A program made the translations under genes and the position numbers. The notes beneath the pieces were generated by a model that was given only the letters and a program-made list of their open reading frames with translations, did not search any database and was not told where the DNA came from. Shown one piece after another: positions 1-42,218 of a stretch of 64,000 nt of DNA. Location: contig OY762940.1 of the NCBI GenBank assembly GCA_963667255.1, positions 640,001 to 704,000 on the forward strand, given 5' to 3'. Source of the stretch: Candidatus Cloacimonadota bacterium. Its GTDB lineage: Bacteria; Cloacimonadota; Cloacimonadia; G963667145. The number at the start of each line of letters is the position of its first letter. Position 1 is the first letter of the stretch.

Positions 1-2
1 TA

Positions 3-638: not shown

Positions 639-642
639 CTTT

Positions 643-5165: not shown

Positions 5166-6256
5166 AACTTGTAGTTAGTGCGGCTCCTCATCTTCACGAT
5201 AAGTTGTCGACCAAATCGATTATGTGGAATGTTGCTTTTGCTCTGTTGCCTGCGTTGTGTTTTTCCGTGTATTACTTTGGTCTAAAAGCTCTTTTACTAA
5301 CTGTTTGTGGGATTGCTTCCGCTATGCTTAGCGAGGCTTTAATTCAGAAATTTAGAAAAGTGCCTGTAACGATAGATGATGGCAGTGCCTTTGTTGCCGG
5401 AATGTTGGTGGCTTACAATATCCCTGTCAGTGCTCCATGGTGGATACCTGTTGTCGGTAGTGCTTTCGCTATGGCTGTGGGCAAGCACGCTTTCGGAGGA
5501 CTGGGTTCTAACATCCTTAATCCGGCTCTGTTGGCGAGAGCTTTCTTGATGGCTTCATGGCCTACGATTATGACGAATTGGAGCAAGACGACTCTTGGTT
5601 CTATCAGTGGAATGATGGGTGTTAGTAGAGATTTGGTCTCCGCCAAAGCTAAGGTTTTGGTTAGCAGTGCCACTCCTTTGGGAGTTGTTAAGTTCTTGCG
5701 AGACCAGAATTTTGTGGATGGTTTGGGTGTTACCGCTCAGCAAGGGAAAGAGGTTGCTCTATTGCTGATGAATAAACTCTCCAGCTTTGAAGTTTTGCAA
5801 AATCTTTTCTGGGGAAACTGTGGAGGAGTTTTAGGCGAGACTTCTGTAATTGCCTTGTTGCTCGGAGCAGGATGGTTGGCTTATAAGCATATAATTGAGT
5901 GGCGAATACCGACTTGCTATATATTGACCGTGTTTGTTCTTACCTATATTTTCGGTGGTATAGACGGAATTTTTTCTGTCTCTATTCTGTTTGCTGCTTT
6001 CCAAGTTTTTGCTGGTGGACTTATTCTCGGTGCATTTTTTATGGCAACGGATATGGTGACTTCGCCGGAGACGAGAAAAGGTAGAATAGTTTTCGGTATA
6101 GGTTGTGGGATTTTGACGGTGTTGATTAGACTAAAAGGTGGTTATCCTGAGGGTGTTTGTTATTCCATCTTGCTGATGAACCTGACCGTGCCCCTGATAA
6201 ATAGATGGACGATGCCAAAATTTTTCGGCTCAACCGGAAAAGGAGGAGCTAAATGA
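5162..6256 (+). CDS. rnfD: Rnf complex subunit D
   Basis: FGGLGSNILNPAL, SSATP, FMATDMVTSP, GYPEGV; ATG at 5162 overlaps rnfC stop. Confidence 0.95.
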   Translation: MKLVVSAAPHLHDKLSTKSIMWNVAFALLPALCFSVYYFGLKALLLTVCGIASAMLSEALIQKFRKVPVTIDDGSAFVAGMLVAYNIPVSAPWWIPVVGSAFAMAVGKHAFGGLGSNILNPALLARAFLMASWPTIMTNWSKTTLGSISGMMGVSRDLVSAKAKVLVSSATPLGVVKFLRDQNFVDGLGVTAQQGKEVALLLMNKLSSFEVLQNLFWGNCGGVLGETSVIALLLGAGWLAYKHIIEWRIPTCYILTVFVLTYIFGGIDGIFSVSILFAAFQVFAGGLILGAFFMATDMVTSPETRKGRIVFGIGCGILTVLIRLKGGYPEGVCYSILLMNLTVPLINRWTMPKFFGSTGKGGAK

Positions 6257-6801
6257 AAAACTATTTAAGACTTTCCGGAATTCTCCTCATTATTTGTGTT
6301 ATTGCCAGTGCAACTTTGGCATTTGTTAACAAAAAGACCAAACCGATTATTGATAATATAGCTGCTCAAGAAGAGAAAAAAGCGATGCTTTTTGTTTTGC
6401 CTGAGGCGGAGTCTTTTGAGAAGCACGAAGATGGCGAATTTGTCTATTACTTGGGACAAAAGAGCGGTGGAGAGTTGATTGGATATGTATTCATCGCAAC
6501 TGGTCAAGGGTATTCCAGTTTGATACGGACTGTGGTCGGTTTGAAGACAGATTTTTCCGTGAATTGCATCAAAGTTATTTCCCAATCTGAGACTCCGGGT
6601 CTTGGTGCGAATAGCGAGAAGCGAGAATGGCAAGACCAATTCAAAGGTAAAAAATGTGCTCAAATATCCGTGGTCAAAGACGGCGGAGAGATTACTAGTA
6701 TAACTGGTTCGACAATAACAAGCAGAGCGATTTCCAATTCTATCAATGCTGGAATTAAGCTTTTGGAAGTGGCAGTCGTGAAAGAGGGAGGCAATAAATG
6801 A
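6253..6801 (+). CDS. rnfG: Rnf complex subunit G
   Basis: N-terminal TM, ETPGLG, ITGSTITS flavinylation-type motif. Confidence 0.94.
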   Translation: MKNYLRLSGILLIICVIASATLAFVNKKTKPIIDNIAAQEEKKAMLFVLPEAESFEKHEDGEFVYYLGQKSGGELIGYVFIATGQGYSSLIRTVVGLKTDFSVNCIKVISQSETPGLGANSEKREWQDQFKGKKCAQISVVKDGGEITSITGSTITSRAISNSINAGIKLLEVAVVKEGGNK

Positions 6802-7391
6802 GGCTTAAAGATAATCTCTTAAAAGGATTTGTTAAAGAAAATCCAATTTTTAGTATGGCTTTGGGGCTTTGTCCGACTTTGGCAGTTACCTCCTCTTTGG
6901 AGAACTCTCTTGGTATGGGGCTTGCCTCGACTTCCGTTCTTATTGGGTCGAATGCGATAATCTCGCTCATCAAGAATTTTATTCCCGACAAAGTGAGAAT
7001 ACCTTGCTACATCGTGGTGATTGCTTCCTTTGTGTCGGTTGTTGATATGTTGATGCACGCTTTTTTGCCGGCTCTGCACAAGAGCTTGGGGCTTTTTATT
7101 CCGCTGATTGTGGTGAATTGTATCATACTTGGTAGAGCTGAGGCTTTTGCCTCCAAGAATGGAGTGTTCGACAGTCTGGTTGACGGTATCTCTATGGGAC
7201 TTGGTTTTACCTGCTCGCTTTCCGTGTTGGGCATCATCAGAGAGATATTGGGTGCTGGCAAAATATTGGGATTTCAGATTATGCCGGACTCTTATCAGCC
7301 GATGTTAATAGCGATATTGGCTCCCGGTGCTTTTATCACGCTTGGTTTCCTTATGGGGATGATCAAGATGATGCAAAAAAAGGAGAAATAG
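6798..7391 (+). CDS. rnfE: Rnf complex subunit E
   Basis: LGLCPTLAVT, IPLIVVNCIILGRAEAFA. Confidence 0.96.
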   Translation: MRLKDNLLKGFVKENPIFSMALGLCPTLAVTSSLENSLGMGLASTSVLIGSNAIISLIKNFIPDKVRIPCYIVVIASFVSVVDMLMHAFLPALHKSLGLFIPLIVVNCIILGRAEAFASKNGVFDSLVDGISMGLGFTCSLSVLGIIREILGAGKILGFQIMPDSYQPMLIAILAPGAFITLGFLMGMIKMMQKKEK

Positions 7392-7394
7392 ATT

Positions 7395-8000
7395 ATGGAA
7401 CTTTTATATAAATTACTTTTTATCTCTATTTCCACCGTATTTGTTCAGAACTTTGTGTTGATGAGGTTTTTGGGGCTCTGTCCGTATATCGGAGTTTCCA
7501 AAAAACTGGATTCTGCTCTCGGAATGGGTATGGCGGTTATTTTTGTAATGAGCATGGCGTCCTGCATCACATATCTTATTCAATACTATCTACTTGTGCC
7601 TTTCGGTTTGGAATATCTGCAAACTATCGCTTTCATTTTGACGATAGCTTCTTTGGTGCAATTTTTGGAGATGGGTATCGCCAAATACGCGCCTGCTTTG
7701 TATAAGGCTTTGGGTGTGTTCTTGCCGCTTATCACCACCAACTGTGCGGTTCTCGGTGTTGCTATTTTGAATATCCAATCGACATGGGCAGACGGGACAC
7801 CGTTTAATTTTATCGAATCTATTTTGCAGGGATTTTTTGCCGGTATTGGATTTACTCTTGTGCTTGTCTTGATGGCAGGGATTAGAGAGAAGTTGGAATA
7901 TTCTCCGGTGCCTGAGTCGCTAAAAGGTATGCCGATTGCTTTCATAGTTGCAGGTTGTATGGCGTTAGCGTTTCTCGGATTTGCCGGTTTCAAAATTTAG
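7395..8000 (+). CDS. rnfA: Rnf complex subunit A
   Basis: FLGLCPYIGVS, LPLITTNCAVLG. Confidence 0.96.
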   Translation: MELLYKLLFISISTVFVQNFVLMRFLGLCPYIGVSKKLDSALGMGMAVIFVMSMASCITYLIQYYLLVPFGLEYLQTIAFILTIASLVQFLEMGIAKYAPALYKALGVFLPLITTNCAVLGVAILNIQSTWADGTPFNFIESILQGFFAGIGFTLVLVLMAGIREKLEYSPVPESLKGMPIAFIVAGCMALAFLGFAGFKI

Positions 8001-8015
8001 CTACTGGAGGAAATT

Positions 8016-9005
8016 GTGGAATTTATTTTATATCCGGTGGCTATCATCGGAGGATTAGGTGTTATTTACGGTTTGATTTTGGCTTTTGCTTCCGTTAAGT
8101 TTAAGGTCGAAATCGATCCCAAAATAGAGCAAGTGATGGAAGTTACTCCCGGTGCGAATTGCGGTGCTTGTGGTTACCCTGGCTGTTCGGCTTATGCCGA
8201 GGCTATCGTGAAAGAAGGTGCTGCGATAAACAAGTGTGCTCCCGGTGGTCAGGCTATGGCGGAGAAAGTGGCGAAGATTATGGGAGTGAAGGCTGGTGCT
8301 CAAAAAAGGAAGGTTGCCGTGATTTTGTGCGGTGCCGGTGGAACTGATAGAACGAACACCACATTTGAGTATAACGGAGTGAACCATTGCAAGATAATGA
8401 ACACTGTCGGTATCGGCACGAACGCTTGCACTTACGGCTGTCTCGGTGGCAATAGCTGTGTGGATGTGTGTTTGTTTGGGGCTATCTCTTTGGACGAATT
8501 TGGCAACAAAACAGTGGATAGAGACAAGTGCACCGGTTGTGGTGCTTGTGTGAAAGAGTGTCCGCGAAATTTGATTGTGTTGGCTGACATCGGCAAAGAG
8601 GTGCATGTATATTGTAGCAACAAGGACAAGGGTGCGGTTGCCAAGAAAAATTGCGGGGCAGTTGCTTGTATCGGCTGTAAAATTTGCGAAAAGAAATGTC
8701 CAGTAGGGGCTATCACTGTGGAAGATAATTTGGCACGGATAGATTATGACAAATGTGTCTCTTGTGGTTTATGTGCCTCGGTGTGTCCGACAGGAGTTTT
8801 GGTTGACAACAAAGAGAAGAGAGGAAAAGCTAGAGTTACTGACGATTGTATTGGCTGCACTCTCTGTGCCAAAGTGTGCCCGACAGAGGCTATTAGCGGT
8901 TCTTTGAAAGAGAAACATGTAGTTGACCCTGAGAAATGTATCGGTTGTGAGGCTTGCGTGAGCAAATGTCCGAAAAAGGCAATTGAAGTAGATTACGCCG
9001 ATTAG
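8016..9005 (+). CDS. rnfB: Rnf complex subunit B (polyferredoxin type)
   Basis: PGANCGACGYPGC plus multiple CxxCxxCxxxCP motifs. Confidence 0.95.
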   Translation: MEFILYPVAIIGGLGVIYGLILAFASVKFKVEIDPKIEQVMEVTPGANCGACGYPGCSAYAEAIVKEGAAINKCAPGGQAMAEKVAKIMGVKAGAQKRKVAVILCGAGGTDRTNTTFEYNGVNHCKIMNTVGIGTNACTYGCLGGNSCVDVCLFGAISLDEFGNKTVDRDKCTGCGACVKECPRNLIVLADIGKEVHVYCSNKDKGAVAKKNCGAVACIGCKICEKKCPVGAITVEDNLARIDYDKCVSCGLCASVCPTGVLVDNKEKRGKARVTDDCIGCTLCAKVCPTEAISGSLKEKHVVDPEKCIGCEACVSKCPKKAIEVDYAD

Positions 9006-10957: not shown

Positions 10958-13546
10958 TTGATGAGAGTGCGGTTTTTTCTTTTTTTGGTTTTCCCTTGTG
11001 TTTTGTTTAGTTCCACTTGGAAATGGGAATACATTAGTTCCCCCAATTTTGACGGCTACTACAAGTCAGGAGAGAAGAATAAAGCGGTTAAGGGGCTTTA
11101 TTTTCTTGAGAAACACAAAGCAGAAATTGATTCGTTGACCGGATTTTCTCAAACGGGGGCTTTTAATTTCGGTTCATATTTTTTGGAAATACCGACTGTG
11201 ATTTCCGATGGAGAATTTAATCAGAGAATCCCGATAGTTTTCCAAGATATGGGGACAGCTAACGGATATGCCGACCCGACGATTCCCAAAATTTCGTTGT
11301 TTCACAATGGGATAAGTGCTAATGAATTTGTTTGGGGAGAGAGTTGGTATAGATTGGTGGGAGTGCACGAATATACGCATATCGCCCAGATGTCGCCGAG
11401 AAGAGGCAATTTGGCGGCTGCAATTTTCGGTTATTGGCTTTGTCCCAACATCTATCAACCTTTGTGGATTTTGGAAGGCTACACTGTTTATAGTGAGTCT
11501 CAAGTTTCTTCGCACGAGGGTCGGCTCAATAATGGTGGCTTTCACGCCATAGCCAAGTCGCAAAAATTTTTCGGAACAACTCCAACTTTGGAAAGCCTCA
11601 CTTACCACTCTGCCAAGGATTTTCCTGCCGATGCTCAGTATCTCTATGGCGGGATTTTGACGGAATATCTATCGCAGACTTACGGAGAGCGGTCGTTAAC
11701 CGATTACAATAATCTTGTGGCAAAGCAAGGTTGTTTGGGGATTTTCAATATATTCTTCCCCAATCTTTTTATGAATAGGGCTGCCAAAAAAGTTTTTGGC
11801 GAGGATTTCCATTCTTTATACAAAGAGGCGATAGCAAATTTACCAGAAATAGAAATTGACACGGATTTGGAGCTGAAAGGGCAGAAAAAAGGGAGCGTTC
11901 AGGAGTTTGTGGTAAAAGATGAGATTTGCTATTACACTGTGCAAACTCACGATTTTTCAGGCTCTTCCGTGAGCAATCTGTATCGTTGGGGAAATGGGGA
12001 ATCTGAATTTATAAGAAGTTTTCTGGCTGCCGATGATTATTCGTTTCAGTTGGTTGGAGATGAGTTGTATTATAGAAAATATGTGTTCAAATCGGGATTT
12101 GCCAATGTAGAGAAGACGGGCTTTGGAGTTAGCAGAGAGCTTTGCGTTTACGATCTCACTAATAGAAAAGAGCGGTCTGTTATCTCGGAGAGCTTGGAGA
12201 GTTTCTTTGTGGATGAGCAGAAAAATATCTATTACACCAAAGAGCGAGCTGATGAGTATGGGAGTGAGTTGTATCTAAAGAAGAGCGGGGGAGAGGCTCA
12301 ATTACAGTTGACTACCGATATGAGCATTTCACAGTTGACGGGCGATGAAGAAAACGGCGTGCTGTTTTTGACTGCCAAATCGGAGCTTGGTTCTTTGGGG
12401 GTATATTCTTGGGAGGTTGGCGACAGCAAATTGAAGAGGATAATCAACTCGGAAGCGGTTGAGATTTATCCTTCCGTGAAAGATGGGAAACTCTTTTTTA
12501 CGGCGAACTATAACAAGAAATTGGGTGGCTATTGCTACGACTTGCAGAGCCTCACGCTAAACAAAATCACAGAGGCTGAATTTGCCAAAGCTGCCAGAGC
12601 GGATGGCGATTTTGCTTACTATTTAGGTTTAGGGAAAGACGGTTACAGGTTATGCCGGGACGAGATTAAAACTGAGAGAGTTGCTGTGCCTGCAAATAGC
12701 GAAGACGAGAAGTTGGATATTTCGGATTTTGCGTATGTTGATAAGGGCGGAGCGACGGCAAGAAATTTGGCTTCTCTCTTGATTCCAAATATCAGGACTT
12801 TCTACTCTTTCAATCAAGGTGCGGATTTATTGGGCTCTACCAGCTATTCGTTGGGAATGAGCGAATCGTTTTTTCTGAACGCTTCCACGACTTTTTTTGA
12901 CCCGTTCATTATCAATTTTGCCATGAGAGCGAAAAAGTATTATGCGGTTAGCGGATTTTTGCCTGTTTACACCTCATTAGATTTTGGGCTTAGCAATCTT
13001 TATCTTTTGCTTGGTTATGAGTTCGACGATGACAAGAAAGCACCGAAAGACAAAGAGTCGCTTTTTACCGGTTTTAATTTCATTTTTGGCTTTCCGCACG
13101 ACTATTTGAGCATTACCTCTACTTATGATGATGCGAATAATGTGGATTGTAAGCTGACTTGCTACCATTATTTTCTCTATTCTCAATTGGGATTTGTCGG
13201 CAGTGTGGAGAAGATTACGGATAAGGATTTGCAATGGTCGCAGATGGAGAAAGAGGCGAACCTTTTTTATTTGCAAAAAATATGTGATGTGAAAAAAGGG
13301 GTATGGACGCCGAGTGTGTATTTGCAAGATTTGAATGTGAAATTTTTTGTGGAGTATGATAAGGGTGAGGCGTCTAAAAACAGCTACGAGATGGATACCG
13401 ATTTTGGTGTCGGCTTGGTTTCTAACATTTTGACTTTGTTGGGAAATTTGAATGGGAATCTTGAGCTTGGGTCTCGTTGGGAGAAGAAGGCAGAAAACAA
13501 AGATTATCAACCTGCGTTTTACTCCAAACTACTGTTTTCGTATTGA
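10958..13546 (+). CDS. Exported protein with HExxH metallopeptidase-like domain, propeller-like middle and possible C-terminal beta-barrel
   Basis: Signal peptide; HEYTH...WILEG; aromatic C-terminus (FSY). Confidence 0.6.
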   Translation: MMRVRFFLFLVFPCVLFSSTWKWEYISSPNFDGYYKSGEKNKAVKGLYFLEKHKAEIDSLTGFSQTGAFNFGSYFLEIPTVISDGEFNQRIPIVFQDMGTANGYADPTIPKISLFHNGISANEFVWGESWYRLVGVHEYTHIAQMSPRRGNLAAAIFGYWLCPNIYQPLWILEGYTVYSESQVSSHEGRLNNGGFHAIAKSQKFFGTTPTLESLTYHSAKDFPADAQYLYGGILTEYLSQTYGERSLTDYNNLVAKQGCLGIFNIFFPNLFMNRAAKKVFGEDFHSLYKEAIANLPEIEIDTDLELKGQKKGSVQEFVVKDEICYYTVQTHDFSGSSVSNLYRWGNGESEFIRSFLAADDYSFQLVGDELYYRKYVFKSGFANVEKTGFGVSRELCVYDLTNRKERSVISESLESFFVDEQKNIYYTKERADEYGSELYLKKSGGEAQLQLTTDMSISQLTGDEENGVLFLTAKSELGSLGVYSWEVGDSKLKRIINSEAVEIYPSVKDGKLFFTANYNKKLGGYCYDLQSLTLNKITEAEFAKAARADGDFAYYLGLGKDGYRLCRDEIKTERVAVPANSEDEKLDISDFAYVDKGGATARNLASLLIPNIRTFYSFNQGADLLGSTSYSLGMSESFFLNASTTFFDPFIINFAMRAKKYYAVSGFLPVYTSLDFGLSNLYLLLGYEFDDDKKAPKDKESLFTGFNFIFGFPHDYLSITSTYDDANNVDCKLTCYHYFLYSQLGFVGSVEKITDKDLQWSQMEKEANLFYLQKICDVKKGVWTPSVYLQDLNVKFFVEYDKGEASKNSYEMDTDFGVGLVSNILTLLGNLNGNLELGSRWEKKAENKDYQPAFYSKLLFSY

Positions 13547-19336: not shown

Positions 19337-20116
19337 TTAATATTTATTATTGTTTATTTTTTTATAACTTCCTCTACCTTTAAATTCAATAATTCCTTTA
19401 TCCCTAAGAATTTGTAATTGCTGTCTAATCTTATCTTTGATAAAGTTGTTGTTGGGATATTTTTGTTTCAAATTTTCTTCGAAATAATACATACTCTCAA
19501 GAGAGAAATCTTCAGTTGGGATAGTATCAACACACTTCATAATATCAAGAATCCATCCTTTTGATTCTTTCTTTTTATCTCTCAGAAATAATGTTTTTTC
19601 AAAAGATTGAGTTACAATTTTGGGGTCAATTATTTTTGTATTTTTAACTAAAAAGACCTTTCCTGCATTTGCAACTTTTGAAATATTTATATTACAGACA
19701 ATCCATCCTGCTCTTCTTGCTGTTTCTTTAAGTGGCGGTCTTTTAATAATAATTTCTTCTGTGAAAAATTGTTTTGGTATTATTAAGAAGTTTTCAACTT
19801 TCCAATTTTTTGAATATGTGAGAAAAAAGAAATTCGGATTATTTTCTGAGTTTATTCTTTCAATCATTGTTGAATAAGCACCATCTGTAATAGTAGTAGA
19901 TAATTTGCCATTTTTGCTTTTTAATTCAAATTCTTCTTTGCAATTATTACAAAAAAAATCAGCAACAGGGCTGTTATTTTCAAATTCATTCAATGGGATA
20001 TTTCCACAATGTGGACAATATGAGTTGTGCAATACCCAATCTTCTGTTAATCTCCGTGCTATTTGAGAATTGCTTTTATAACCTTCTGCTAATTTCAAAT
20101 TAAAATCTAAATTCAT
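19337..20116 (-). CDS. DpnI-family (Dam-replacing) methyl-directed restriction endonuclease
   Basis: YKSNSQIARRLTEDW..YCPHCGN..FENNSPVADFFC..EFELKSK and C-terminal DKIRQQLQILRD winged helix. Confidence 0.92.
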   Translation of the reverse strand: MNLDFNLKLAEGYKSNSQIARRLTEDWVLHNSYCPHCGNIPLNEFENNSPVADFFCNNCKEEFELKSKNGKLSTTITDGAYSTMIERINSENNPNFFFLTYSKNWKVENFLIIPKQFFTEEIIIKRPPLKETARRAGWIVCNINISKVANAGKVFLVKNTKIIDPKIVTQSFEKTLFLRDKKKESKGWILDIMKCVDTIPTEDFSLESMYYFEENLKQKYPNNNFIKDKIRQQLQILRDKGIIEFKGRGSYKKINNNKY

Positions 20117-27262: not shown

Positions 27263-28924
27263 TTACACAAAGCCAACTTTAGTTGCCGTGTTACTTAAAG
27301 TTTCATCAGTACAAAAGCCCATCAATTTTGAAAATGAAACTTTCTCATTATAAATTATTTCATGGATTTCATTTTTGCGGAAAATATTATCAATTTGGCC
27401 ACTCGAGAAATCAAATTTTTCTGCCAATAAATCACAATTCTGTTGAGTTAAAAAAGGCAATTTTAGTTTCCAAATTTTTGATCTAACATCAATATTAGGC
27501 TTTTGGAATTTGATTTTAAATAAAAATCTTCTTTCAAAAGCAGAATCGAGATTATTTGATAGATTTGTAGTTGCTATCAAAATTCCTTCAAAATTTTCTA
27601 ACTCTTCCAGAAGAATATTTTGTATCGCATTTTGAGTTTGACCAGTACTGGAAATGTTGATGTCTATTCTTTTAGAAATTATAGCGTCAGCTTCATTAAA
27701 AAATAGAATAGGTACCTTAGAGCAATCTTTTGAATAAAAATTATAATCAGTAAAAATTTGTTTTACTATTTTTTCACTTTCTCCAAACCACATTGATTTT
27801 GATTGGCTTAAATCTACATGAATTATCTCTCTTTTGGTTTCTCTAGCTATCTGTTTCACTATTTCTGTTTTGCCAGTGCCAGGTGCTCCATATAGCAGAA
27901 CAACAATTCCTTTTGGCAAATTTTTCTCTGTTAAACGTTTTTGGGTACTTTTGAATTTTCTTTCTTTCAATAAATTTTTTAATAGGTAAAGTTGTTCCAT
28001 CTCTGTGTTGCTAAAAATTAATTTTCTTGAGGGTATTTTATCAGAGAAAATTATGTTTTTTTCATTTTTTTTATTAATGGTTATATTGATTCCACATTCT
28101 TTAAGTAAATTTAGAGAAAAATCTGTGAGAGCAACTTGTGTATCTTGCACAAATCTTGCTTTTACAATTTCGATTAAATTTTGTTCTATAAGAACATTTT
28201 CCCCAGAGCTAATTTTTTGTAAAATTTCCACCACTTTTACAGTTTTATCATAGATTATATCTATAACTCTTCTAATTTCAAAGCTTTTAGTTCCTCGCAT
28301 TGTATTCCAAATTAAATGGACATATATGTAAAAATTTTCAACATCTAATTTTAAAGAATTTATCTTTTTTAATAGAGGAAAGTGCTTGTTCGCTTCTCTT
28401 ATCTCTTCAACAGTTTCAAAAAATTCTTCGGTTGTAATATTATCATCATCGCGATTATATAATGCTTGTGAGAAGCTCGACAAAACATCATAAATATTAG
28501 AAATCTCATTTTCTTTTATTTGGGGAATAGGCTTATTCTGGATAATTGCTCTAGATATTTTGCTATTTACTCTATATAAATGTTTGCATATTCTACCTTT
28601 TACTACAGCATTCCAGAAAGGTCTTAGTAAAATACCAGAGCGAATTAGATTTAAAATTTCTTCTTGAAACTTAAAGATTTTTACTGTGCTACAACAAAAA
28701 TGGTCGGCTAACTCCTTATAAGTTGGAGATTCTTCTTGAGATTCAAAAGCAAAGATAAGAGAAATAAAAAAAGCTTGTATTTTATTAGTTTTGAATTGTT
28801 TTGCAAGGTAGGTTAATTCAGGGTCTATCTTTGTAAAAAAAGTTTCCTCTAACTTAGAATCATTAGATTCTTCATAAACTTTTTCTATGGTTTCTATAAT
28901 TATGAATTTACCTTTTTTTGTCAT
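27263..28924 (-). CDS. AAA+ ATPase with large N-terminal domain
   Basis: GAPGTGKT Walker A; ILFFNEAD variant Walker B; ATTN; LDSAFERRF arginine finger. Confidence 0.88.
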   Translation of the reverse strand: MTKKGKFIIIETIEKVYEESNDSKLEETFFTKIDPELTYLAKQFKTNKIQAFFISLIFAFESQEESPTYKELADHFCCSTVKIFKFQEEILNLIRSGILLRPFWNAVVKGRICKHLYRVNSKISRAIIQNKPIPQIKENEISNIYDVLSSFSQALYNRDDDNITTEEFFETVEEIREANKHFPLLKKINSLKLDVENFYIYVHLIWNTMRGTKSFEIRRVIDIIYDKTVKVVEILQKISSGENVLIEQNLIEIVKARFVQDTQVALTDFSLNLLKECGINITINKKNEKNIIFSDKIPSRKLIFSNTEMEQLYLLKNLLKERKFKSTQKRLTEKNLPKGIVVLLYGAPGTGKTEIVKQIARETKREIIHVDLSQSKSMWFGESEKIVKQIFTDYNFYSKDCSKVPILFFNEADAIISKRIDINISSTGQTQNAIQNILLEELENFEGILIATTNLSNNLDSAFERRFLFKIKFQKPNIDVRSKIWKLKLPFLTQQNCDLLAEKFDFSSGQIDNIFRKNEIHEIIYNEKVSFSKLMGFCTDETLSNTATKVGFV

Positions 28925-28956
28925 ATAATGAACTCCTTTATTTTATTATGAAAATG

Positions 28957-29313
28957 CTATTTTTCTTTTATTTTTTCGAGACAATATTTGCAGTCCTCCT
29001 CAGAAATTTTCCCTTGATCTTTGAATGATGTAAGAATTGGCATTGCAAAGTCGTTGGGTAAAGTATGCCAAGTTGGATATCCTCTAGAGTTTGGATCTCC
29101 GATTTTTGACCAAAACCAACGTGTTGCCAACCTGTGGCTTCCTTCCCACAACAATAGAGCCAATGCCCATCTATTTTTTTCATCTATATAAATTATTTTT
29201 TTGACAGATGAAATTTTTTGTCTGGGGAAATTAATCAGTTTAGCATTTTCTTCTGTAACTTTAATCCACCCATCTTCGTCTAATTCAAAACCGTATTTTT
29301 TAAGATCTGCCAT
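28957..29313 (-). CDS. Hypothetical protein
   Basis: AGGAG RBS; W..RW...G.P.SRG.PTW motif. Confidence 0.75.
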   Translation of the reverse strand: MADLKKYGFELDEDGWIKVTEENAKLINFPRQKISSVKKIIYIDEKNRWALALLLWEGSHRLATRWFWSKIGDPNSRGYPTWHTLPNDFAMPILTSFKDQGKISEEDCKYCLEKIKEK

Positions 29314-29328
29314 GGCTTATCTCCTTTT

Positions 29329-30012
29329 TTAGTGTTTTTTCCACATTTCACAAATATTTTTTATTGCTTCTAAATATTGATTATAATTTGGTATAGAAGG
29401 ATGCTTTATAGAGTGAATAATGGATTTATTCAAATTGGTACTCTGTTTATATTTGAGAATATTATCACCACTCATTGCATTGAAACTATTACATCCTGCC
29501 TTTCCGCCTATAATAATTATGTCAGCTTCTAAAGCCTGAATTTCAGCATATATTTTCTTTCCGAGACAACTTTTCCCACTATCAATAATTGCAGTATAAT
29601 TTTCTCTTTTTGTTGAATTAGAAGTTGGACGTATATTATAATAAGTGATTTTGTTCAAAGTATCATTTTCTATACTCTTAATATTGTTGTAAGCCTCTTT
29701 CAAATCTTTTCTTGTAGGTTCTTTTCCTTTTTCTAAGCAATCCAATACTACTTTAGCAAAAGCTAAAGAGTATCTTACGGTTCTTGTTCTTGTGTTGCCT
29801 TTATCATTTAGCCAATCGCAGAGAGTCTTTTTACCAACATCAAAAATCTTACATTTTTCATATCCGTAAGGCTCTTCATTGATAATTAAAACTTTAATTT
29901 CTTGCTCCCAAAACAAATTTGAGATAGGACTATAAAACATATGATGCTCAATATGTCGTTGATCAATAAACTTTTTTGTTTCTTTTCTTGCATTTTTAAA
30001 AATTTCCTCCAT
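29329..30012 (-). CDS. Uracil-DNA-glycosylase-fold-like hypothetical protein
   Basis: GGGAGG RBS before ATG 30012; LIINEEPY, YYNI, ADIIIIGG, C-terminal HPS motif. Confidence 0.55.
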   Translation of the reverse strand: MEEIFKNARKETKKFIDQRHIEHHMFYSPISNLFWEQEIKVLIINEEPYGYEKCKIFDVGKKTLCDWLNDKGNTRTRTVRYSLAFAKVVLDCLEKGKEPTRKDLKEAYNNIKSIENDTLNKITYYNIRPTSNSTKRENYTAIIDSGKSCLGKKIYAEIQALEADIIIIGGKAGCNSFNAMSGDNILKYKQSTNLNKSIIHSIKHPSIPNYNQYLEAIKNICEMWKKH

Positions 30013-30174
30013 TAGTTCCTCCCATATTTTTATATTAAACCAGAGAAAGAATTCGGAGAAAATTGTCAACATAAATGATAATCTTTATTATAACTGACGT
30101 CAGCATAATAAAACTCTTATTTTTTTAGTTTTATTAGAAGGGTCGTTTACTATAAAAACAATAGAATAAGTTAC

Positions 30175-31539
30175 TTATCGGAAGGTTTTATTTAGGGGGT
30201 AAAATTTTTTCAAACTGATGTTGATTGAGGTGTATTTTTTGATTTCGCTCAAATAGATGAGGTTGTCTTCGGTTCGCAGTTGACAGCCAGTAAAGGTTTC
30301 GACCTCAAAATTTCCCATAATTTCCAAAACGATTTGGTCTATGTCAAAATTGCTGGCAACCTCAATAATATTTTTATCGGTAACGAATTTCAGTTGTTTG
30401 CGTTTTTTGAGCCAAGTTTTTATCTCTTTTTGGCTATCAAAATAAATCTCCGGATTATGCCCGATTTTGACTATTTTTTTTATTAGATTAAGAGAATATT
30501 TAATGTCATACAAATCTGAAAATCTGAAAGAAAATCCGATAGCTCCATTGGTTTGATATGCATAATCTATGAGCGACGAAATTTGGGTTTGAGCTGAGGA
30601 TTCATCCGCTATTTTATAATCTCCATCCATCAAGTCTTTGCTGGAAAAGGAAGCAAATAGTTCCTCTTTTTCGGATGGGAAAAAAATGTTCTTTTTGACA
30701 GGCAAATTCTCTGTATCGGCTTTTACCAGATTTTTGTTTATTCGGAAGAGCTCTTTTTTTACCTCTAAATTTTCGGGGTCAAAATTGCTGTTGTTTTTTA
30801 GTAAACAGTAGGTCAATTTGGGAATGGCTTCTAATAAGTAAAAATTCCAATATGGTTCATCATTTTTGAAATTGAGGGTAAAGTATTCTTTGATGGCTGA
30901 AATCGGATGCGAAAATAGATTCTTGATAATTTTCTTCAATGTTTTCGAATAGCTTTTCCATTTGTAAAGTCTGTCAATTTCTGCAATTAGGGATATAGCG
31001 AATTTTTCGTTGTTAGGCCACATTTTTTTGCGTATCATACAATGGTCATCATCGACACACTCTTCTATGAAGGTTAAAAAGTTGTTCAGCAGTAAGTTGC
31101 AGATAGGTTTATTGGAGGAATCTACTTGATAAGTGGAAAACTGATAGATATTACCAAACAAATCGAAATTGTAAAAAAAACATCTCGTAAAATCGTCTTT
31201 CTTTTCTTGGATGTCAGGAGGCATAGGGCTCAAAACATGGAATGTAGAGAACTCTTTTTTTAATTTCTTAGATTCTGCTTCGGTCAATTTTTCGTATAAA
31301 TCGGGATTGAATGAAACAAAGAAGATGTTGGAGCATTTGCAGTATTTTATCAAGTCGGTAATTTCACGATTTTTGGGTCGATTTAGCGAATAACACATCA
31401 GAATGTCGTCCTCTTCAATCTCCATAAGTCCTGCAATAATCTCGTGTTGAAAGCCCAAATATTCAAAGCTGAGGTCCAAAACTTCCGTTATTTTTTCTGT
31501 ATAAGTTTCTAATTTTTCGTCAATAATAAGTTTTATCAT
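30175..31539 (-). CDS. Hypothetical protein, degenerate polysaccharide-deacetylase-like
   Basis: WPNNEKFAISLIAEID resembles the WP..K.FA..LTHDVD deacetylase motif. Confidence 0.55.
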   Translation of the reverse strand: MIKLIIDEKLETYTEKITEVLDLSFEYLGFQHEIIAGLMEIEEDDILMCYSLNRPKNREITDLIKYCKCSNIFFVSFNPDLYEKLTEAESKKLKKEFSTFHVLSPMPPDIQEKKDDFTRCFFYNFDLFGNIYQFSTYQVDSSNKPICNLLLNNFLTFIEECVDDDHCMIRKKMWPNNEKFAISLIAEIDRLYKWKSYSKTLKKIIKNLFSHPISAIKEYFTLNFKNDEPYWNFYLLEAIPKLTYCLLKNNSNFDPENLEVKKELFRINKNLVKADTENLPVKKNIFFPSEKEELFASFSSKDLMDGDYKIADESSAQTQISSLIDYAYQTNGAIGFSFRFSDLYDIKYSLNLIKKIVKIGHNPEIYFDSQKEIKTWLKKRKQLKFVTDKNIIEVASNFDIDQIVLEIMGNFEVETFTGCQLRTEDNLIYLSEIKKYTSINISLKKFYPLNKTFR

Positions 31540-31691
31540 AAGTCCGTTTGTTTGAATTCCGTAGATAACTTGTTTTATTTGCAAATAATAATAAGAGCCA
31601 ACACAAACAAAAAAAAATCGATTTAACTGCCGTCAAGTAAAATTTGTGTTGACATTGCTTACTTGGGTGTTGATGTTGTTACAATTGAACG

Positions 31692-36694: not shown

Positions 36695-36969
36695 AATTTC
36701 TTTCTGAAAAAAATCTATTCTTAGTCAAGAATAAATTAAGGAAAATAAATCTTGTAACTTCTAAAAATACAATAAAATACAAAAAATCATAAAAAACTAA
36801 AAAAAATAAAATATGCATTTAATTTCTTATAAATGAATATAATAAGTCCTATATTGCCAAAAAAAAGCATTGAAAAACAAAAAAAAGATTTGACACATAA
36901 ACTATTTAGAATTCCGTTTGATGTGTGATAGTAAAAAAAGTATCAATTTTGATAAAATCAGGAATTAAA

Positions 36970-38955
36970 ATGCGGACGAAGAAATTATTTTTGTTCATAC
37001 TTACCTTTGCATTCAGTTTGTTGAGTGCACAGCTTCCTTTGGGTCAAAGCGAAAGCGAGCCTCTAAGCGTTGTTATGTATGCAGACAGAATATCAAGAAA
37101 CTATGAGGTGAGACTTTCTTCTGCTCTTTCTTCTTATTGTGAAAGAGGAACTTATGAGGTTGATGTTACTGTCAATCTGAAACCGAGACAAGGTGCATCT
37201 TCTTATCGTTCTTTTCAGAGTTCTTCGGATTTTGGTATGGATGATGGGATTATCATGCCCGGGACAGATGGGAGGTTCCTTAACGAATTTGTAGACAACC
37301 CTGAAGGAGTGCAGAGTGTTGTTGCTGCTCCAGTTCTTCCTGCTGTAACAACTAACACTTATTCTTCCAGCAATTTAACTGATTATGATGTTGAGAATGT
37401 TATTATAAATGTAATGCTTGATGCTTCTGCTTATTCTCCGGAGGATGTTTCCTTTATTGAGGAATTGGTAAGAATGAAATCGGGAGTAGATGCGTATCGT
37501 GGAGATGTGGTTAATGTTTCTTTGGTTAAGTTTACCAATCAAAAGCAGAAGATGATAGAAGAAGCACAAAAACTTGAGGAAGAAAAGAAGAAAAAAGAAG
37601 AGGAAGAAAAAAAGGCTGCTGAAGAAGAAGAAAGACGGAAAAGACAAGAGGAGTTAGATAAAGCTAACCAAGTTCAACCTGAACCTGAAAAGGAAGATAA
37701 TTTCCTTACTTACCTTATAGTTGGGTTAGTTGGGTTGCTATTATTGATTGGATTATTCCTTGCATTTTTCTTTATGTCCAAAAAACAGTCCGCCATGAAT
37801 GCCAACCTAGTGCAACCGAAAGTTAACTTCCCTCGATATGACGAGCAATTCGATAGCCTTATGCAAGAGGTTAGGGATCTTAGGAATGTCAATAGAACTT
37901 CTGATCCTGCGAGAATGGAAATTGCCGAGTACAAGAAACTCCGTTCTTTTGCTATTAATAAGTTCTTAGCGGAAGCAAAAAATGTGGGGATAGTATTGCA
38001 AGGTTGGGTAGATAGTGGTGGAGATGAAGGCGTTGATAAGGCTTCTAAATTGATTAAGGCGATAGATGAAAACCTGTTAGAGATTTTGGAAGAAAAAGTT
38101 TCTCACGAAGATTTCAAGTTGTTGTCCTGGAATGTTCGCAACATGGAAGAACTTGATACGAAAACTAAGCTGGAAGCGTTGCAAAATTTTAAAAATGCTT
38201 GGAGTTCTCTGACTGTTACTGAGGATAGTGAAGGTGATTCTGGAATGTTTGGTTTCTTGAATTCTATGTCTGTGGAGCAAATCAGACAAGCACTCAAGGG
38301 AGAAGCTGATGGTGTCCAAGCTCTTGTTATTACGCAAGTGTCAGCGGATAAGGCTTCGGAGATACTTGCTTCTTACACTTCTGAGCAACGCTCCTCTATT
38401 ATGGCAAATATGGGTAAACTTGGCAAGATACCTACTTCTGTTTACAAAGAGGTTTCCAGTCGTTTGGCAAAAGAGGCTCTCAATATGCGTGGTATGGAGT
38501 ATGTTTCTTCCGATGGAGCCGGCAAGATGTTGGAGATTTTGGAAACTCTTTCTATTGGAGAGCAAAAAGAGTTCATTGATGAGATTACTAAAGCTGATAT
38601 AAATGTTGCTGAGAAGGTGTTGAAGTTCTTTATCGCTTTTGATGATTTGGCTGATTTGGAAGAAAATATTTTGGTTAAGGCTATCCAAAAAATGGATAGA
38701 GATTTGTTGTCATCAGCTTTGGTTGGTGTCGATGAGATTAAAACTAACAATCTTCTTTCCAATATTCCCGAGCGGATGAGAGAAATCATCAAGTCTGAAC
38801 TTAGAATAAACGAAAATAAACTCAAACCTGACGATGTAGAAAAAGCTAGAATGAAAATGATGTCTATAGTCAAGAAAGAGATTAGAGATGCTGGTGGACG
38901 AAAGATTGGCGATAATGCACAAGCTGAAGAAAAAGGGATGAGCGATGAGTATTAG
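36970..38955 (+). CDS. FliF C-terminal ring domain-FliG fusion protein
   Basis: Signal peptide; FliF_C-like IEELV...G.D..RGDVVNV...F; one TM; FliF C-tail-like VGIVLQGWV; then FliG N/M/C-like domains (FIAFDDL, IPERMREIIKSEL). Confidence 0.8.
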   Translation: MRTKKLFLFILTFAFSLLSAQLPLGQSESEPLSVVMYADRISRNYEVRLSSALSSYCERGTYEVDVTVNLKPRQGASSYRSFQSSSDFGMDDGIIMPGTDGRFLNEFVDNPEGVQSVVAAPVLPAVTTNTYSSSNLTDYDVENVIINVMLDASAYSPEDVSFIEELVRMKSGVDAYRGDVVNVSLVKFTNQKQKMIEEAQKLEEEKKKKEEEEKKAAEEEERRKRQEELDKANQVQPEPEKEDNFLTYLIVGLVGLLLLIGLFLAFFFMSKKQSAMNANLVQPKVNFPRYDEQFDSLMQEVRDLRNVNRTSDPARMEIAEYKKLRSFAINKFLAEAKNVGIVLQGWVDSGGDEGVDKASKLIKAIDENLLEILEEKVSHEDFKLLSWNVRNMEELDTKTKLEALQNFKNAWSSLTVTEDSEGDSGMFGFLNSMSVEQIRQALKGEADGVQALVITQVSADKASEILASYTSEQRSSIMANMGKLGKIPTSVYKEVSSRLAKEALNMRGMEYVSSDGAGKMLEILETLSIGEQKEFIDEITKADINVAEKVLKFFIAFDDLADLEENILVKAIQKMDRDLLSSALVGVDEIKTNNLLSNIPERMREIIKSELRINENKLKPDDVEKARMKMMSIVKKEIRDAGGRKIGDNAQAEEKGMSDEY

Positions 38956-40090
38956 AAAGTTTATATTAGCTCTTTTTTTTGCGGTTTTTAGTTCTGCTCT
39001 TTTTGCTCAGTTTGAGTATAATGAGTTTTCTAATATGAGTGCTATTGGAACTACTCCCAGGAGTGACAGGTCGGAGGTTCGTAATATTTCTCGGATTATG
39101 ATGAGGGTAAAGGAGTCCGTGCTCAATTTTCCACTGGGCGTTAGAAGAGTGGCAGTTTATAGGATTAGAGCGGATAGAGATGCTATTTCTGTAGGAATGG
39201 TTAGATTTGTTAAATCAAAGTTAGAGCAAGTCCTTTTGGATAATGAATTGATAGAACTTGTAGTCGTCCCTGAATTTAACTTGGCGAGAGTTAAAATAAC
39301 TGACACATCTTTTAGCTATGTAAACTCTGCTAGATCGTTTGCAGAGCTTAGGTCTTTGGGCGAGAGATACGAGATAGATGCCTTTATCGAGGGTGAATGT
39401 ACTCGTAGTGCTTATGGGGACATTTTGCTTTCTTTGAAAATGGTTAGCAATAAGACTGGTGAGATTATTTGGTCTAAGGCGTTTATAGAAGGTCCTAACA
39501 ACGACCGTGACATTGAGATTCCGAAACAATATGCTATGAATTTTGATGTTGGTTTCTTTACTGTTAATCAGTATTATGGTGGTGTTTCTCTTTTTGGTAC
39601 AGACAATATGGGGGGCAAATCTACCAATACTGTGGTCATGACAGACTATCGTATCGGAGTAACTCGTAAGCAAATCTCCAATTTCAGCTTTGCTCCAGTG
39701 ATGATGACACTTTCTGGAGGATTGGCTATAGTTAATTGTCAGATAACGATGAACAACATAGATGGTTTTACCAAACTTGCTACTCCCTTCTTAGGTTATG
39801 GTTCAGGAGGAGTTTTAGCGAAGTATTTTAAAAAAGAAAGCAAAACTAAAACTTTGAAAGAGAATTACTGGTTTAAACCGTATATGAAAGGATATTTTTA
39901 TGTTCCGATTAACTATTCGGGAAGTTTTATGTCTTTGATGATAGGAGCTAATTCTGATGTTAGTGAGGATATAGAGGTTGGTGGTGGTCTTGGAGTCATG
40001 CCTTTTGGGAGAAAATTGACTAAAAATAGTACTAATTATATAGAGTTTGGAGTTATGAAATATGAGATTAACATTAGTTATAATTTCTAG
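38945..40090 (+). CDS. Exported FlgO/CsgG-like protein with probable C-terminal outer-membrane beta-barrel
   Basis: Signal peptide; LGERYEIDAFIEG...LKMVSNKTGEIIWS; alternating beta strands ending YEINISYNF. Confidence 0.6.
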   Translation: MSIRKFILALFFAVFSSALFAQFEYNEFSNMSAIGTTPRSDRSEVRNISRIMMRVKESVLNFPLGVRRVAVYRIRADRDAISVGMVRFVKSKLEQVLLDNELIELVVVPEFNLARVKITDTSFSYVNSARSFAELRSLGERYEIDAFIEGECTRSAYGDILLSLKMVSNKTGEIIWSKAFIEGPNNDRDIEIPKQYAMNFDVGFFTVNQYYGGVSLFGTDNMGGKSTNTVVMTDYRIGVTRKQISNFSFAPVMMTLSGGLAIVNCQITMNNIDGFTKLATPFLGYGSGGVLAKYFKKESKTKTLKENYWFKPYMKGYFYVPINYSGSFMSLMIGANSDVSEDIEVGGGLGVMPFGRKLTKNSTNYIEFGVMKYEINISYNF

Positions 40091-40745
40091 TATTTTTCTA
40101 CTTTCCGGTTGTTCTTTGTGGAATAAATATTTTGCAAAAACGGGAGTCACCGAGACGAGTAAAATTTCGGAGAAAGCTGCTGTGAATGCGACTTCTGGTT
40201 TGGGTAGTGCCGATATTGATAGAGGTCTTGGTGGAATAGGAGAGACAAAGCAGGAGACGACTATAATACAGCAAAATCCTATTAGACCGGGGAAGAATGA
40301 AATTCTCATAAAATACAGAAATAAGTCTTCGGAAGTTATTTTGAGTCTTGACCCGAGGGATAATAATGTGCAAATTGATGTTTCCAAAGCTCAATCTGCC
40401 GGAGATATGTTTTCCGAGAGTTCTATTCCTTTGAACTCTTCAGGAGATATGTCAGGTCGGTCTTCTGGGGGAGCACAAGGCAGTCCAGATGGTTCTGGTG
40501 ATAATGAAAAAGATATGTTAGCTAGAGCTCAAAGCAGTTTTTATAATGGTGATTATCAAAAATCTTTGCAACAAGTGAATAGTTCTATAAATACTAAACC
40601 CAATGCAGAGGCTTATGCCTTGAAAGGCAGTATTTACTACATGCTTGGCAATTTAGCATTGGCAAGAAAAAATTGGACTAACTCTCTGCGATTGGACAGC
40701 AATATCCAAGGTGTGAGACAAATGCTGAACATTATAGGAAATTAA
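40062..40745 (+). CDS. Lipoprotein with C-terminal TPR domain
   Basis: Lipobox LLSGC; AQSSFYNGDY...AEAYALKGSIYYMLG...W. Confidence 0.8.
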   Translation: MRLTLVIISSIFLLSGCSLWNKYFAKTGVTETSKISEKAAVNATSGLGSADIDRGLGGIGETKQETTIIQQNPIRPGKNEILIKYRNKSSEVILSLDPRDNNVQIDVSKAQSAGDMFSESSIPLNSSGDMSGRSSGGAQGSPDGSGDNEKDMLARAQSSFYNGDYQKSLQQVNSSINTKPNAEAYALKGSIYYMLGNLALARKNWTNSLRLDSNIQGVRQMLNIIGN

Positions 40746-40746
40746 G

Positions 40747-41553
40747 ATGGTTGGTTCTTTCAGTTCATTTTTGGCGTTTATTATCACATGGGTAATAGTA
40801 ATATTTTCTATTCTTGTAGCTACTTCCAATTGGCAGGTTTTTGTTAGCACTGCCAGCTTGCTGATTGTTATTGGTGGTACTATTGCCAGTGAGTTTATCG
40901 GGAGAGGGCTCAAAGAGACATTGGGAGCTCTTCTTTTTACTTTAAAATCTTTGTTCAAGCAGCCTATGGTAAGCAAGCATTTTGCTGCGGAAATTGATAG
41001 GATTAAAGGTTGGGCTGACAAAGTGCAGAGTGGAGGTAAGAAAGCTTATGATGAGATTTATTCTGAGGTTGCTGATCCATTCGAAAAATATGTTTTTTCT
41101 ATATTATCTACCGGTTATTCTGCAGATGAGTCGAGAGATTTTATCGCCAACGAAATCCAAAGAGAGTACCAAATTAGTGAGAGAAGGTCTCAGATTTTAA
41201 CTAATCTCGGTGGGAGTGCACCCGCTTTTGGTATGTTGGGAACTTTGTTGGGATTGGTAATTTTGCTCAGTCAACTTGATGACCCGTCCAAAATCGGTCC
41301 TGCTATGGCTGTTGCTCTCATTACTACTTTTTATGGATTGCTTTTGGCGAGATTGTTTTTTATTCCCGCTGCAAACAAATCTTATTCTACTGCTGAGGCG
41401 ATTTTGTTTAAGAAAAGAATGTTAATGGAAGGAGCATGTCTAATTATGCAGGATAAGTCCTCTTTCTACATTGAAGATTTTTTGCGTTCTTTTGTCGAGA
41501 AAGGGAAGTCAGATACTGTTGATGAAGATATAATTAGCGATAGTAATATTTAG
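40747..41553 (+). CDS. motA: MotA/PomA-family stator subunit
   Basis: SLLIVIGGT; APAFGMLGTLLGLV; DPSKIGPAMAVALITTFYG. Confidence 0.9.
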   Translation: MVGSFSSFLAFIITWVIVIFSILVATSNWQVFVSTASLLIVIGGTIASEFIGRGLKETLGALLFTLKSLFKQPMVSKHFAAEIDRIKGWADKVQSGGKKAYDEIYSEVADPFEKYVFSILSTGYSADESRDFIANEIQREYQISERRSQILTNLGGSAPAFGMLGTLLGLVILLSQLDDPSKIGPAMAVALITTFYGLLLARLFFIPAANKSYSTAEAILFKKRMLMEGACLIMQDKSSFYIEDFLRSFVEKGKSDTVDEDIISDSNI

Positions 41554-41561
41554 ATATTTTC

Positions 41562-42218
41562 ATGGAATTTCAGAAAAAATCTCCTAAGCCGATTGACGAA
41601 TCGTGGATGACGACTTATTCCGATTTGGTGACTTTGTTGCTGTGTTTTTTTGTGCTTTTGGTGTCTATGTCAAGCACAAACATGGGTATGTGGCAAGAAT
41701 TTAAAGAGGGATATCGTGCTGAAATTGAGGCTGCTGAAGACGATTTTGCTACTCCATTATCTAGAATGAAAGCCGATTTGGATTCTATGTTGATAGAAGA
41801 GAGAATGGCAGGCATTGTTTCCATTCGCCTAAATCGTTCTTCTATTACCATCAATATTTTGTCCGATGCACTTTATCGCACGGGCGAGGCGGTAATTATC
41901 AAAGAAAATATTGGGATTTTAAACAAGATTTCCGAGTCTATTAAGTCCATTAATTACTACGAACCGAAAATTGACATTGAGGGGCACACTGACGATGCTC
42001 CTATCCATAATTCCAAATTTCCGTCTAACTGGGAATTGTCTGTTGGCAGAGCGTCTAATATTGTGAGATATTTCATTTCTCAGGGAATAACTCCCGAACA
42101 GATGAAAGCCGCCGGATACGCTTATATCAAGCCTTTAGCTCCAAATAGAGACCAGGAAGGCAAGCCGATAAAGGCAAATCGCGATTTAAACCGTCGTGTC
42201 GTTATCGACATCCATTAG
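41562..42218 (+). CDS. motB: MotB/PomB-family stator subunit with OmpA-like peptidoglycan-binding domain
   Basis: WMTTYSDLVTLLLCFFVLL; IEGHTDD; SNWELS..RA; NRRV. Confidence 0.92.
   Translation: MEFQKKSPKPIDESWMTTYSDLVTLLLCFFVLLVSMSSTNMGMWQEFKEGYRAEIEAAEDDFATPLSRMKADLDSMLIEERMAGIVSIRLNRSSITINILSDALYRTGEAVIIKENIGILNKISESIKSINYYEPKIDIEGHTDDAPIHNSKFPSNWELSVGRASNIVRYFISQGITPEQMKAAGYAYIKPLAPNRDQEGKPIKANRDLNRRVVIDIH

Follow-up and report, generated by a model that had tools for sequence, protein, structure and literature searches.

The main finding of this work is a five-gene operon that constitutes the torque-making core of a flagellar motor without a flagellum. The operon lies in a stretch of 64,000 nucleotides (hereafter, the window) from contig OY762940.1 of a Candidatus Cloacimonadota bacterium, and it encodes a FliF-FliG fusion, an outer-membrane protein, a tetratricopeptide repeat (TPR) lipoprotein and the stator subunits MotA and MotB (Table 1). 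We are highly confident that these genes form a maintained, non-flagellar machine. Regarding its work, we hypothesize, with a probability of about 0.5, a one-way, ion-driven rotor, which the TPR links with the outer membrane as well as with a surface protein.

A rotor and stator core without a flagellum

The initial annotation had described five coupled genes on the + strand between apbE and rqcH, which was borne out at positions 36970-42218. Genes 1 and 2 overlap by 11 nt and genes 2 and 3 by 29 nt, genes 3 and 4 are separated by 1 nt and genes 4 and 5 by 8 nt, and both flanking genes, apbE and the NFACT/RqcH gene, lie on the - strand. An alternative upstream start of the fusion gene, a GTG at 36925, would yield a product of 676 amino acids (aa). 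Domain identification by Pfam and NCBIfam revealed FliG_M (E 2e-10) and FliG_C (E 1e-11), and also TPR, MotA_ExbB, MotB_plug and OmpA, in the operon products, as well as a YscJ_FliF_C match in the fusion (Pfam E 1e-4) just under the cut-off. Each of the five genes occurs once among the 1456 open reading frames (ORFs) recognized by our own caller in the whole genome.

This genome is a single contig of 1.59 Mb, 98.86% complete. The absence of further flagellar genes, previously claimed for the 64 kb, holds there and was extended by profile searches to the whole genome, in which FlhA, FliP, flagellin, rod/hook, FliM/N and chemoreceptors gave no match (FliI, FlhB, FliQ and FliR were not searched). 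There is thus no separate flagellar gene set of the kind that the search proposed in the initial annotation could have uncovered. Flagellated control genomes were positive for every absent family, with four controls for FlhA and FliP, and in the genus of the window both FlhA and flagellin were found in 0 of 6 genomes. No SctV/FlhA, SctR/FliP or SctJ ring match to a type III injectisome was obtained in the genome, nor, over the cut-off, any ATPase of a type IV pilus or of type II secretion. No prepilin motif was found, and the operon locus has no ExbB/TolQ-type A subunit, ExbD/TolR-type B subunit or TonB/TolA transducer.

Table 1. Operon genes (window positions), segments of the fusion protein (residues) and giant fibronectin type III (FnIII) proteins (genome contig positions)
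Feature	Position	Strand	Length	Remark
Gene 1, FliF(RBM3)-FliG fusion	36970..38955	+	661 aa	ATG preceded by AGGA
Gene 2, outer-membrane protein	38945..40090	+	381 aa	
Gene 3, TPR lipoprotein	40062..40745	+	227 aa	
Gene 4, MotA/PomA-type stator A subunit	40747..41553	+	268 aa	
Gene 5, MotB-type stator B subunit	41562..42218	+	218 aa	
Fusion, likely signal peptide	~1-20			
Fusion, periplasmic split ring-building motif	28-189			
Fusion, charged helix	191-232			
Fusion, membrane helix	249-267			one helix
Fusion, possible FliF C-tail/FliG_N junction	~320-410			suggestive only
Fusion, FliG_M	451-521			
Fusion, FliG_C	553-652			
Giant FnIII protein	G000:C1 377030-410773	-		
Giant FnIII protein	G000:C1 491876-525049	+		
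Giant FnIII protein	G000:C1 526084-558840	+		

The reading of gene 1 as a FliF-FliG fusion stood for the FliG part, given by FliG_M and FliG_C, and was narrowed for the FliF part, which comprises only the C-terminal half of that protein, that is, the third ring-building motif (RBM3, the S-ring) and one membrane helix. The hydropathy of the fusion displays only an N-terminal segment, by its pattern a likely cleaved signal peptide, and one strong internal helix, and between them there is room for only one RBM. Therefore, the parts of FliF that house the export gate (RBM1, RBM2, first membrane helix) are missing; the N-terminal FliF domain PF01514 likewise gave 0 matches in the whole genome. An AlphaFold2 model made from 29 sequences (mean predicted local distance difference test score, pLDDT, 66.7; predicted template modelling score, pTM, 0.30) predicts for residues 34-186 a helix-strand unit, a low-confidence insert and a strand-helix-strand unit, followed by a long charged helix, the membrane helix and helical cytoplasmic domains. 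Residues 28-189 match FliF 255-452 (RBM3/S-ring) with Z 14.9 and a root-mean-square deviation of 2.5 A over 101 aligned residues, the matches to PrgK (Z 8.5) and SpoIIIAG (Z 7.4) being weaker, and Foldseek (E 1e-4) and a sequence profile (E 3e-5) also point to RBM3. A stretch at ~320-400 resembles the FliF tail and FliG_N in register, at a level short of statistical significance (hhalign E 0.03, probability 1.6%; hidden Markov model E ~2), and a second variant of the system, described below, has no equivalent stretch. In the FliG part, R602 and E610 align, via a canonical relative, with R281 and D289 of Salmonella; the equivalent of R281 is kept in 52/52 sequences and so is an acid at the equivalent of 289 (16 canonical, 26 of the second variant and 10 of this variant). 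Both Salmonella residues contact MotA, according to the cited part of PMC7564593.

The stator A subunit belongs to the flagellar type (E 1e-40 to PomA vs 1e-5 to TolQ), and the closest solved relative of the operon MotA is PomA (E 4e-31). The MotB protein has a membrane helix with Asp21, a plug region and an OmpA-like peptidoglycan-binding domain, and the Asp is present in 28/30 operon copies. The equivalents of MotA P151, T158 and T186, positions with a role in Na+ binding, are kept in 32/32 operon copies and are also found in most flagellar outgroup MotAs. Since the residues are so common in the outgroups, it is only weakly indicated that Na+ is somewhat more likely than H+ as the ion. An Rnf-type electron-transport operon at 3843-9005 of the window (RnfC, RnfD and a polyferredoxin RnfB-like gene) is a likely source of ion-motive force. 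As to the Ton motors to which the initial annotation had pointed as an analogy, the stator is no Ton substitute: the one other MotA homolog of the genome is ExbB-like and belongs to a separate exbB-exbD-tonB-like run, identified by eye.

Comparison of the window with locus L001 gave ratios of nonsynonymous to synonymous substitution (dN/dS) of 0.046, 0.072, 0.094, 0.060 and 0.026 for genes 1 to 5, and of 0.099, 0.066 and 0.030 for the neighbours apbE, rqcH and cysS, rough values with synonymous sites near saturation. The reading frames of all five genes are open in 6/6 genomes. Thus, the five genes are under purifying selection, at a level like that of the neighbouring genes. In a MotA tree of 44 rows, each variant and the flagellar MotAs of the phylum form separate supported groups, with the deeper order unresolved. 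The operon MotAs fall outside the phylum's flagellar MotA clade (support 97/94, 5 rows), and the branch leading to the MotAs of this variant is long (1.7 changes per site). When the two variants (A and B) and the flagellar MotAs were constrained as A+B, B+flagellar or A+flagellar, none of the groupings was rejected (approximately unbiased test, p-AU 0.47, 0.42 and 0.42), and the MotA tree is therefore silent on a single origin of the two variants.

Outer-membrane partners and distribution in the phylum

Domain and fold evidence also supports the two non-flagellar partners proposed at the outset; one is a barrel protein of the outer membrane, the other a lipoprotein with TPRs. The product of gene 2 has a signal peptide, a predicted alpha-beta domain of the LpoB/FlgT/PelC/TolB_N type (residues 46-184) and a predicted small OmpA/OmpW-like beta-barrel of 8-10 strands (192-381) whose last residue is Phe. 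Its model was poor overall (pLDDT 60) and shows two parts. The alpha-beta domain matched LpoB best (Z 12.0), and then FlgT (8.4), PelC (7.5) and CsgG (6.4), while the barrel part matched small outer-membrane barrels with Z 8-10. A sequence match to gene 2 was not found in the PDB. Its relatives amount to 72 at 50% clustering, the 30 clusters looked up yielded two taxon names, Fibrobacteria and Elusimicrobia, and weak FlgO matches occurred in 6/64 aligned members. The product of gene 3 is a lipoprotein (Cys17) in which residues 78-109, 32 in all, are invariant in 6/6 homologs; behind them come a linker that varies and, at the C-terminus, a pair of TPRs.

The phylum was sampled with 151 genomes for marker counts and 232 for the fusion profile search. 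FliG_C was detected in 51/151 genomes and FlhA in 16/151, and a short canonical FliG is present in these same 16 genomes and in no others of the sample. A fusion without FlhA and without FliM/N occurs in 35/151 genomes, 11 of them single-contig and the rest fragmented; among the tested carriers, 35/37 are without FlhA, and G001 and G019 have both a flagellar FlhA and the fusion. With a cut-off of E <1e-50, picked after viewing the list, and a profile built partly from the same genomes, the fusion was found in 55/232 genomes, the FliG part only in 20, and no fusion in the 98 genomes of family f3. The five-gene variant is limited to the genus of the window (6/232 genomes), where gene order and flanks are the same in 5/5 congener loci; these probably overlap the five congener genomes and are counted once.

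In the second variant, a fusion of 459-514 aa precedes motA and motB, the three genes being contiguous in all 20 loci, which were hand-picked and fetched. In 15 of them this core adjoins genes for a surface protein of 770-1900 aa and for a PorP/PorV/FadL-like barrel that has TPRs as its tail, whereas four have a separate TPR protein and one has neither, so that an exported TPR protein accompanies 19/20 second-variant loci and 6/6 loci of the first variant. The adjoining surface proteins are of the Ig/cadherin type and have one C-terminal domain (CTD) in common (15/15), with a CHU_C match in 2 of the 6 scanned. The TPR pair of gene 3 has its homolog in the tail of the barrel protein of the second variant: a profile of that tail ranks gene 3 first of the 1456 ORFs (E 5e-11 vs 1.7e-7 for the next). 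Other arrangements were also observed. G127 carries two tandem diverged copies of fusion-motA-motB-TPR (L046:5586-14072), G112 has two copies with different partners (L049, L050), and in family f8 (L038-L043, L045; 7/20 loci) the core is directly followed by AAA ATPase, Wzc-like, LytR/SLBB and Wza-like genes.

Look-alikes of the fusion and gene 2 retrieved with a language model fell into clusters mostly of Balneolota, Bdellovibrionota, Bacteroidota, Elusimicrobiota, Pseudomonadota and Myxococcota; these are leads, without alignment or gene context. Cytophaga hutchinsonii may also have motA/motB/fliG-like genes. Metagenome scans found no operon loci, the gene order being established within Cloacimonadota only, word-based homolog searches reached only close relatives, and among plasmid records FliG was found in its ordinary form only and gene 2 had no relative.

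The initial annotation had also drawn an analogy with type IX secretion systems (T9SS), which fails for this genome. SprA is present in 141/151 genomes of the sample and in 0/6 of the window's genus, and because of this T9SS is not a general client of the motor. The genus, g1 (G000, G002, G007, G016, G022, G064), with single-contig genomes of 1.5-1.6 Mb, is the only sampled family wholly without SprA. In Cloacimonadota, SprA is otherwise near-universal; GldM_1st was over the cut-off in 0/151 genomes, a family that no control genome carries, and GldL, GldK and GldN were not searched. Regarding CTD cargo in this genome, Por_Secre_tail and the CTD profile of the second variant gave 0 matches and CHU_C one match below the cut-off. 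Three FnIII-rich proteins of ~11,000 aa, with N-termini that look lipoprotein-like by eye, occupy ~6% of the 1.59-Mb genome, and their homologs are found at three loci in 5/5 congeners, two loci having a shorter open frame. One of them ends in a GH19 chitinase domain and also has Listeria-Bacteroides repeats. These giant lipoproteins can only be guessed to be a load of the motor, because their genes are unlinked to the operon.

Proposed mechanism and alternatives

What was established directly is the inventory of parts, what is absent, the conservation and the matches in fold, and from these we infer assembly, rotation, coupling and load. By analogy with FliF, the fusion would be exported and anchored by its one helix, the RBM3 domains would assemble into a ring, and FliG would form the cog on the cytoplasmic side. 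Such a ring, having no RBM1/RBM2, would hold no export gate and build no rod. As in known MotAB, the MotA5B2 complex would bind peptidoglycan by its OmpA domain, conduct ions and drive FliG through the retained D102/R602 charge pair, and the ring is probably turned by the stator. Because FliM/N and chemoreceptors are absent, the direction of rotation would never be switched. Conservation suggests that the outer-membrane-anchored TPR pair is the periplasmic coupler, hanging from the lipoprotein here and from the PorV/PorP/FadL-like barrel in the second variant, while the LpoB/FlgT-like barrel protein of gene 2 may serve as anchor or bushing. The weakest step is the load, for which the Ig/cadherin protein with a CTD that neighbours the second variant is a candidate, as possibly are the unlinked FnIII lipoproteins here; that it is a surface protein reached through TPR has a little less than an even chance. 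The surface protein would be spun or dragged, resulting in attachment or surface movement. In a more tentative generalization, a one-protein FliF-FliG rotor with its own MotAB, devoid of filament, export gate and switch and geared by TPR to giant surface adhesins, may be a new type of rotary machine driven by ions and a filament-free engine of motility or attachment in several phyla. In previous work, engineered FliF-FliG fusions assembled into rings with no other flagellar part present (PMC10941966, in the part cited here).

Several observations weigh against this rotor. The flagellar MotA motif in contact with the rotor is RxxG-hydrophobic-hydrophobic-xLE (bioRxiv 2021.01.07.425829, cited in part), and the operon MotA reads QSGGKKAYD, with the Gly and the final acid kept and the remainder changed; in 6/6 MotAs of this variant R88 is replaced by Q, the two hydrophobic residues by lysine/arginine and E96 by D, while in the second variant the E96 acid is lost in 26/26 and R88 is mostly kept (20/26). 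The equivalent of FliG D288 is Ser in 10/10 sequences of this variant. Ser also replaces the MotB Asp in 2/24 second-variant copies (L036:9449-10033 and L037:6864-7448), which belong to the two flagellated genomes that also carry this variant. The beta-collar insert of the fusion model has a pLDDT <50, within a whole-model pTM of 0.30, there is no rod to cross the peptidoglycan, and FliM/N appear to be needed for a stable ring (PMC10941966, same part). On the outer side, TPR similarity alone is no proof of a common partner, the barrel and surface-protein genes are divergent from the core in 7 of the 15 loci, and in the window's genus SprA is absent and a surface-protein gene adjoins the operon in none of the loci. 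Finally, the support consists of sequence, folds and gene context.

Some of these observations would be expected of a ring that does not rotate and that, fixed to the outer membrane via the TPR and barrel proteins, only docks and gates MotAB as a load-gated ion channel, an envelope tether or a Tol-like tensioner. The altered MotA motif and FliG D288 equivalent, the absence of FliM/N and rod, the two MotB copies without Asp and the resemblance of the gene 2 domain to LpoB and TolB_N, both envelope-maintenance folds, are all compatible with such a scaffold or sensor. Nevertheless, the equivalents of R281 and D289 are known to serve in contact with the stator and do not vary among sequences that share only 15-20% identity, and the genome has its separate Exb/Ton-like set. 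Moreover, the two charges lost here, MotA R88 and FliG D288, are known interaction partners (bioRxiv 2021.01.07.425829, cited in part), as fits a re-tuned interface; the altered contact motif fits a re-tuned gear and is also compatible with a lost one. We consider the non-rotating ring unlikely, at roughly one chance in four. Less likely still is a powered export channel in which the RBM3 ring, empty inside, would make up a conduit together with a ring of the gene 2 product, and a polymer, either polysaccharide or giant lipoprotein, would be wound out by the motor. The fold that gene 2 has in common with ring-forming PelC, CsgG and FlgT (Z 6.4-8.4), the polysaccharide-type genes behind the core in family f8 and the three giant lipoproteins in a genus without SprA would be in line with it, but the best fold match of gene 2 is LpoB, its barrel is small, polysaccharide genes are absent at this locus and most others, and the inner-membrane ring has one helix per subunit with no gate identified.

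The distribution of the genes bears on the two remaining explanations. A substitute T9SS motor could be imagined in a phylum where SprA is so widespread, GldL/GldM may be lacking (GldM_1st being without a positive control) and the neighbours of the second variant include CTD proteins and PorP/PorV-like barrels. However, family f3 has SprA in 67/69 genomes and the fusion in 0/98, and the window's genus has the operon in 6/6 genomes and SprA in none, which makes this role very improbable; as a general role, replacement of the T9SS motor was rejected, being contradicted by the distribution of the fusion against that of SprA. The least probable explanation is a decaying flagellar relic. Flagellated genomes do occur in the phylum (16/151), the branch to the MotA clade is long, and the literature permits cheap remnants (bioRxiv 2024.12.05.626484, in the part cited). 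Against it stand dN/dS values of ~0.03-0.09 with all frames open, retention of the operon in a genome of only 1.59 Mb, a new architecture (signal peptide and fusion) with non-flagellar partners common across families, the position of the operon MotAs outside the phylum's flagellar clade and the two genomes that carry both systems. The initial annotation had itself named decay, with loss of conservation and relaxed selection, as an outcome that would refute its reading; the gene order is conserved elsewhere, and the relic reading was rejected on the purifying-selection result.

Relation to known systems and other features of the window

To our knowledge, FliG is not known outside the flagellum. 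The operon has in common with the flagellar motor core the RBM3 fold, FliG_M and FliG_C with the Arg and acid of the torque helix, and a flagellar-type stator with plug and OmpA domain, and by analogy it may work like that core. It differs in being a natural fusion without RBM1/RBM2, the first membrane helix, FliM/N and the export apparatus, in having no rod, hook, filament or chemoreceptors, in its altered MotA contact motif and in its two non-flagellar outer-membrane partners. The type III injectisome, too, is a machine that arose from one portion of the flagellum and has an inner-membrane RBM ring; however, it kept the export apparatus and lost the motor, and the operon is its mirror image, having kept the motor with no FlhA/SctV or FliP match. 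In T9SS/gliding, an ion-driven 5:2 motor is linked to surface adhesins, and the SprF/PorP barrel is paired with the SprB adhesin, much as the neighbours of the second variant include a CTD protein of the CHU_C type and a PorP/PorV-like barrel. In contrast, the motor of the operon is MotAB with a FliG ring instead of GldLM/GldKN, its genus has no SprA and its distribution is uncoupled from that of SprA. Ton/Tol and the Myxococcus Agl motors are non-flagellar, MotAB-like 5:2 motors acting on the outer membrane, whereas the operon has a stator of the flagellar kind with a dedicated FliG rotor; in PMC12505986 (cited in part), flagellar-type stators form one group associated with the flagellum, and the Ton/Tol and Agl motors are among the generic ion transporters. 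Laboratory FliF-FliG fusions of Salmonella and Vibrio form rings, and a Salmonella fusion-deletion mutant rotates (PMC10941966, PMC9389320, both cited in part). These also join ring and cog in one chain, but with a nearly full FliF inside a flagellum, while the operon has half a FliF in a natural, stand-alone fusion.

Taken by the tested features, the operon belongs to none of flagellum, injectisome, T9SS and Ton/Tol; its parts are known and the machine is not. No description of such an operon was found in open PMC and bioRxiv full text, and subscription papers and supplements could hold a mention. Rotor genes without filament genes have been reported in 11% of non-motile species, with an alternative function left open in the part of that report cited here (bioRxiv 2024.12.05.626484). 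To this question the operon brings a concrete answer, one that is under selection, spans several families and has defined partners, and it bears on the minimal rotor and on the evolutionary assembly of the flagellum. Three genes (the fusion, motA and motB) make the turning of an RBM3/FliG ring without FliM/N, rod or export gate directly testable. If our hypothesis is true, the operon would be a case, in a living organism, of 'half a motor' being useful, and if the load is a surface adhesin, it would represent an undescribed way of moving or holding on.

Elsewhere in the window, an 862-aa ORF without a Pfam match (10958-13546) lies between amino-acid permease and lipopolysaccharide glycosyltransferase genes, and a nuclease of the DpnI family (Dam-replacing) is encoded at 19337-20116. 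A patch of low GC content (29-34%) at 27263-31584 contains an AAA ATPase and two proteins without a Pfam match, and at 45733-50019 genes for a LolA-like protein, a DUF1302 barrel and an MMPL transporter form a single run.

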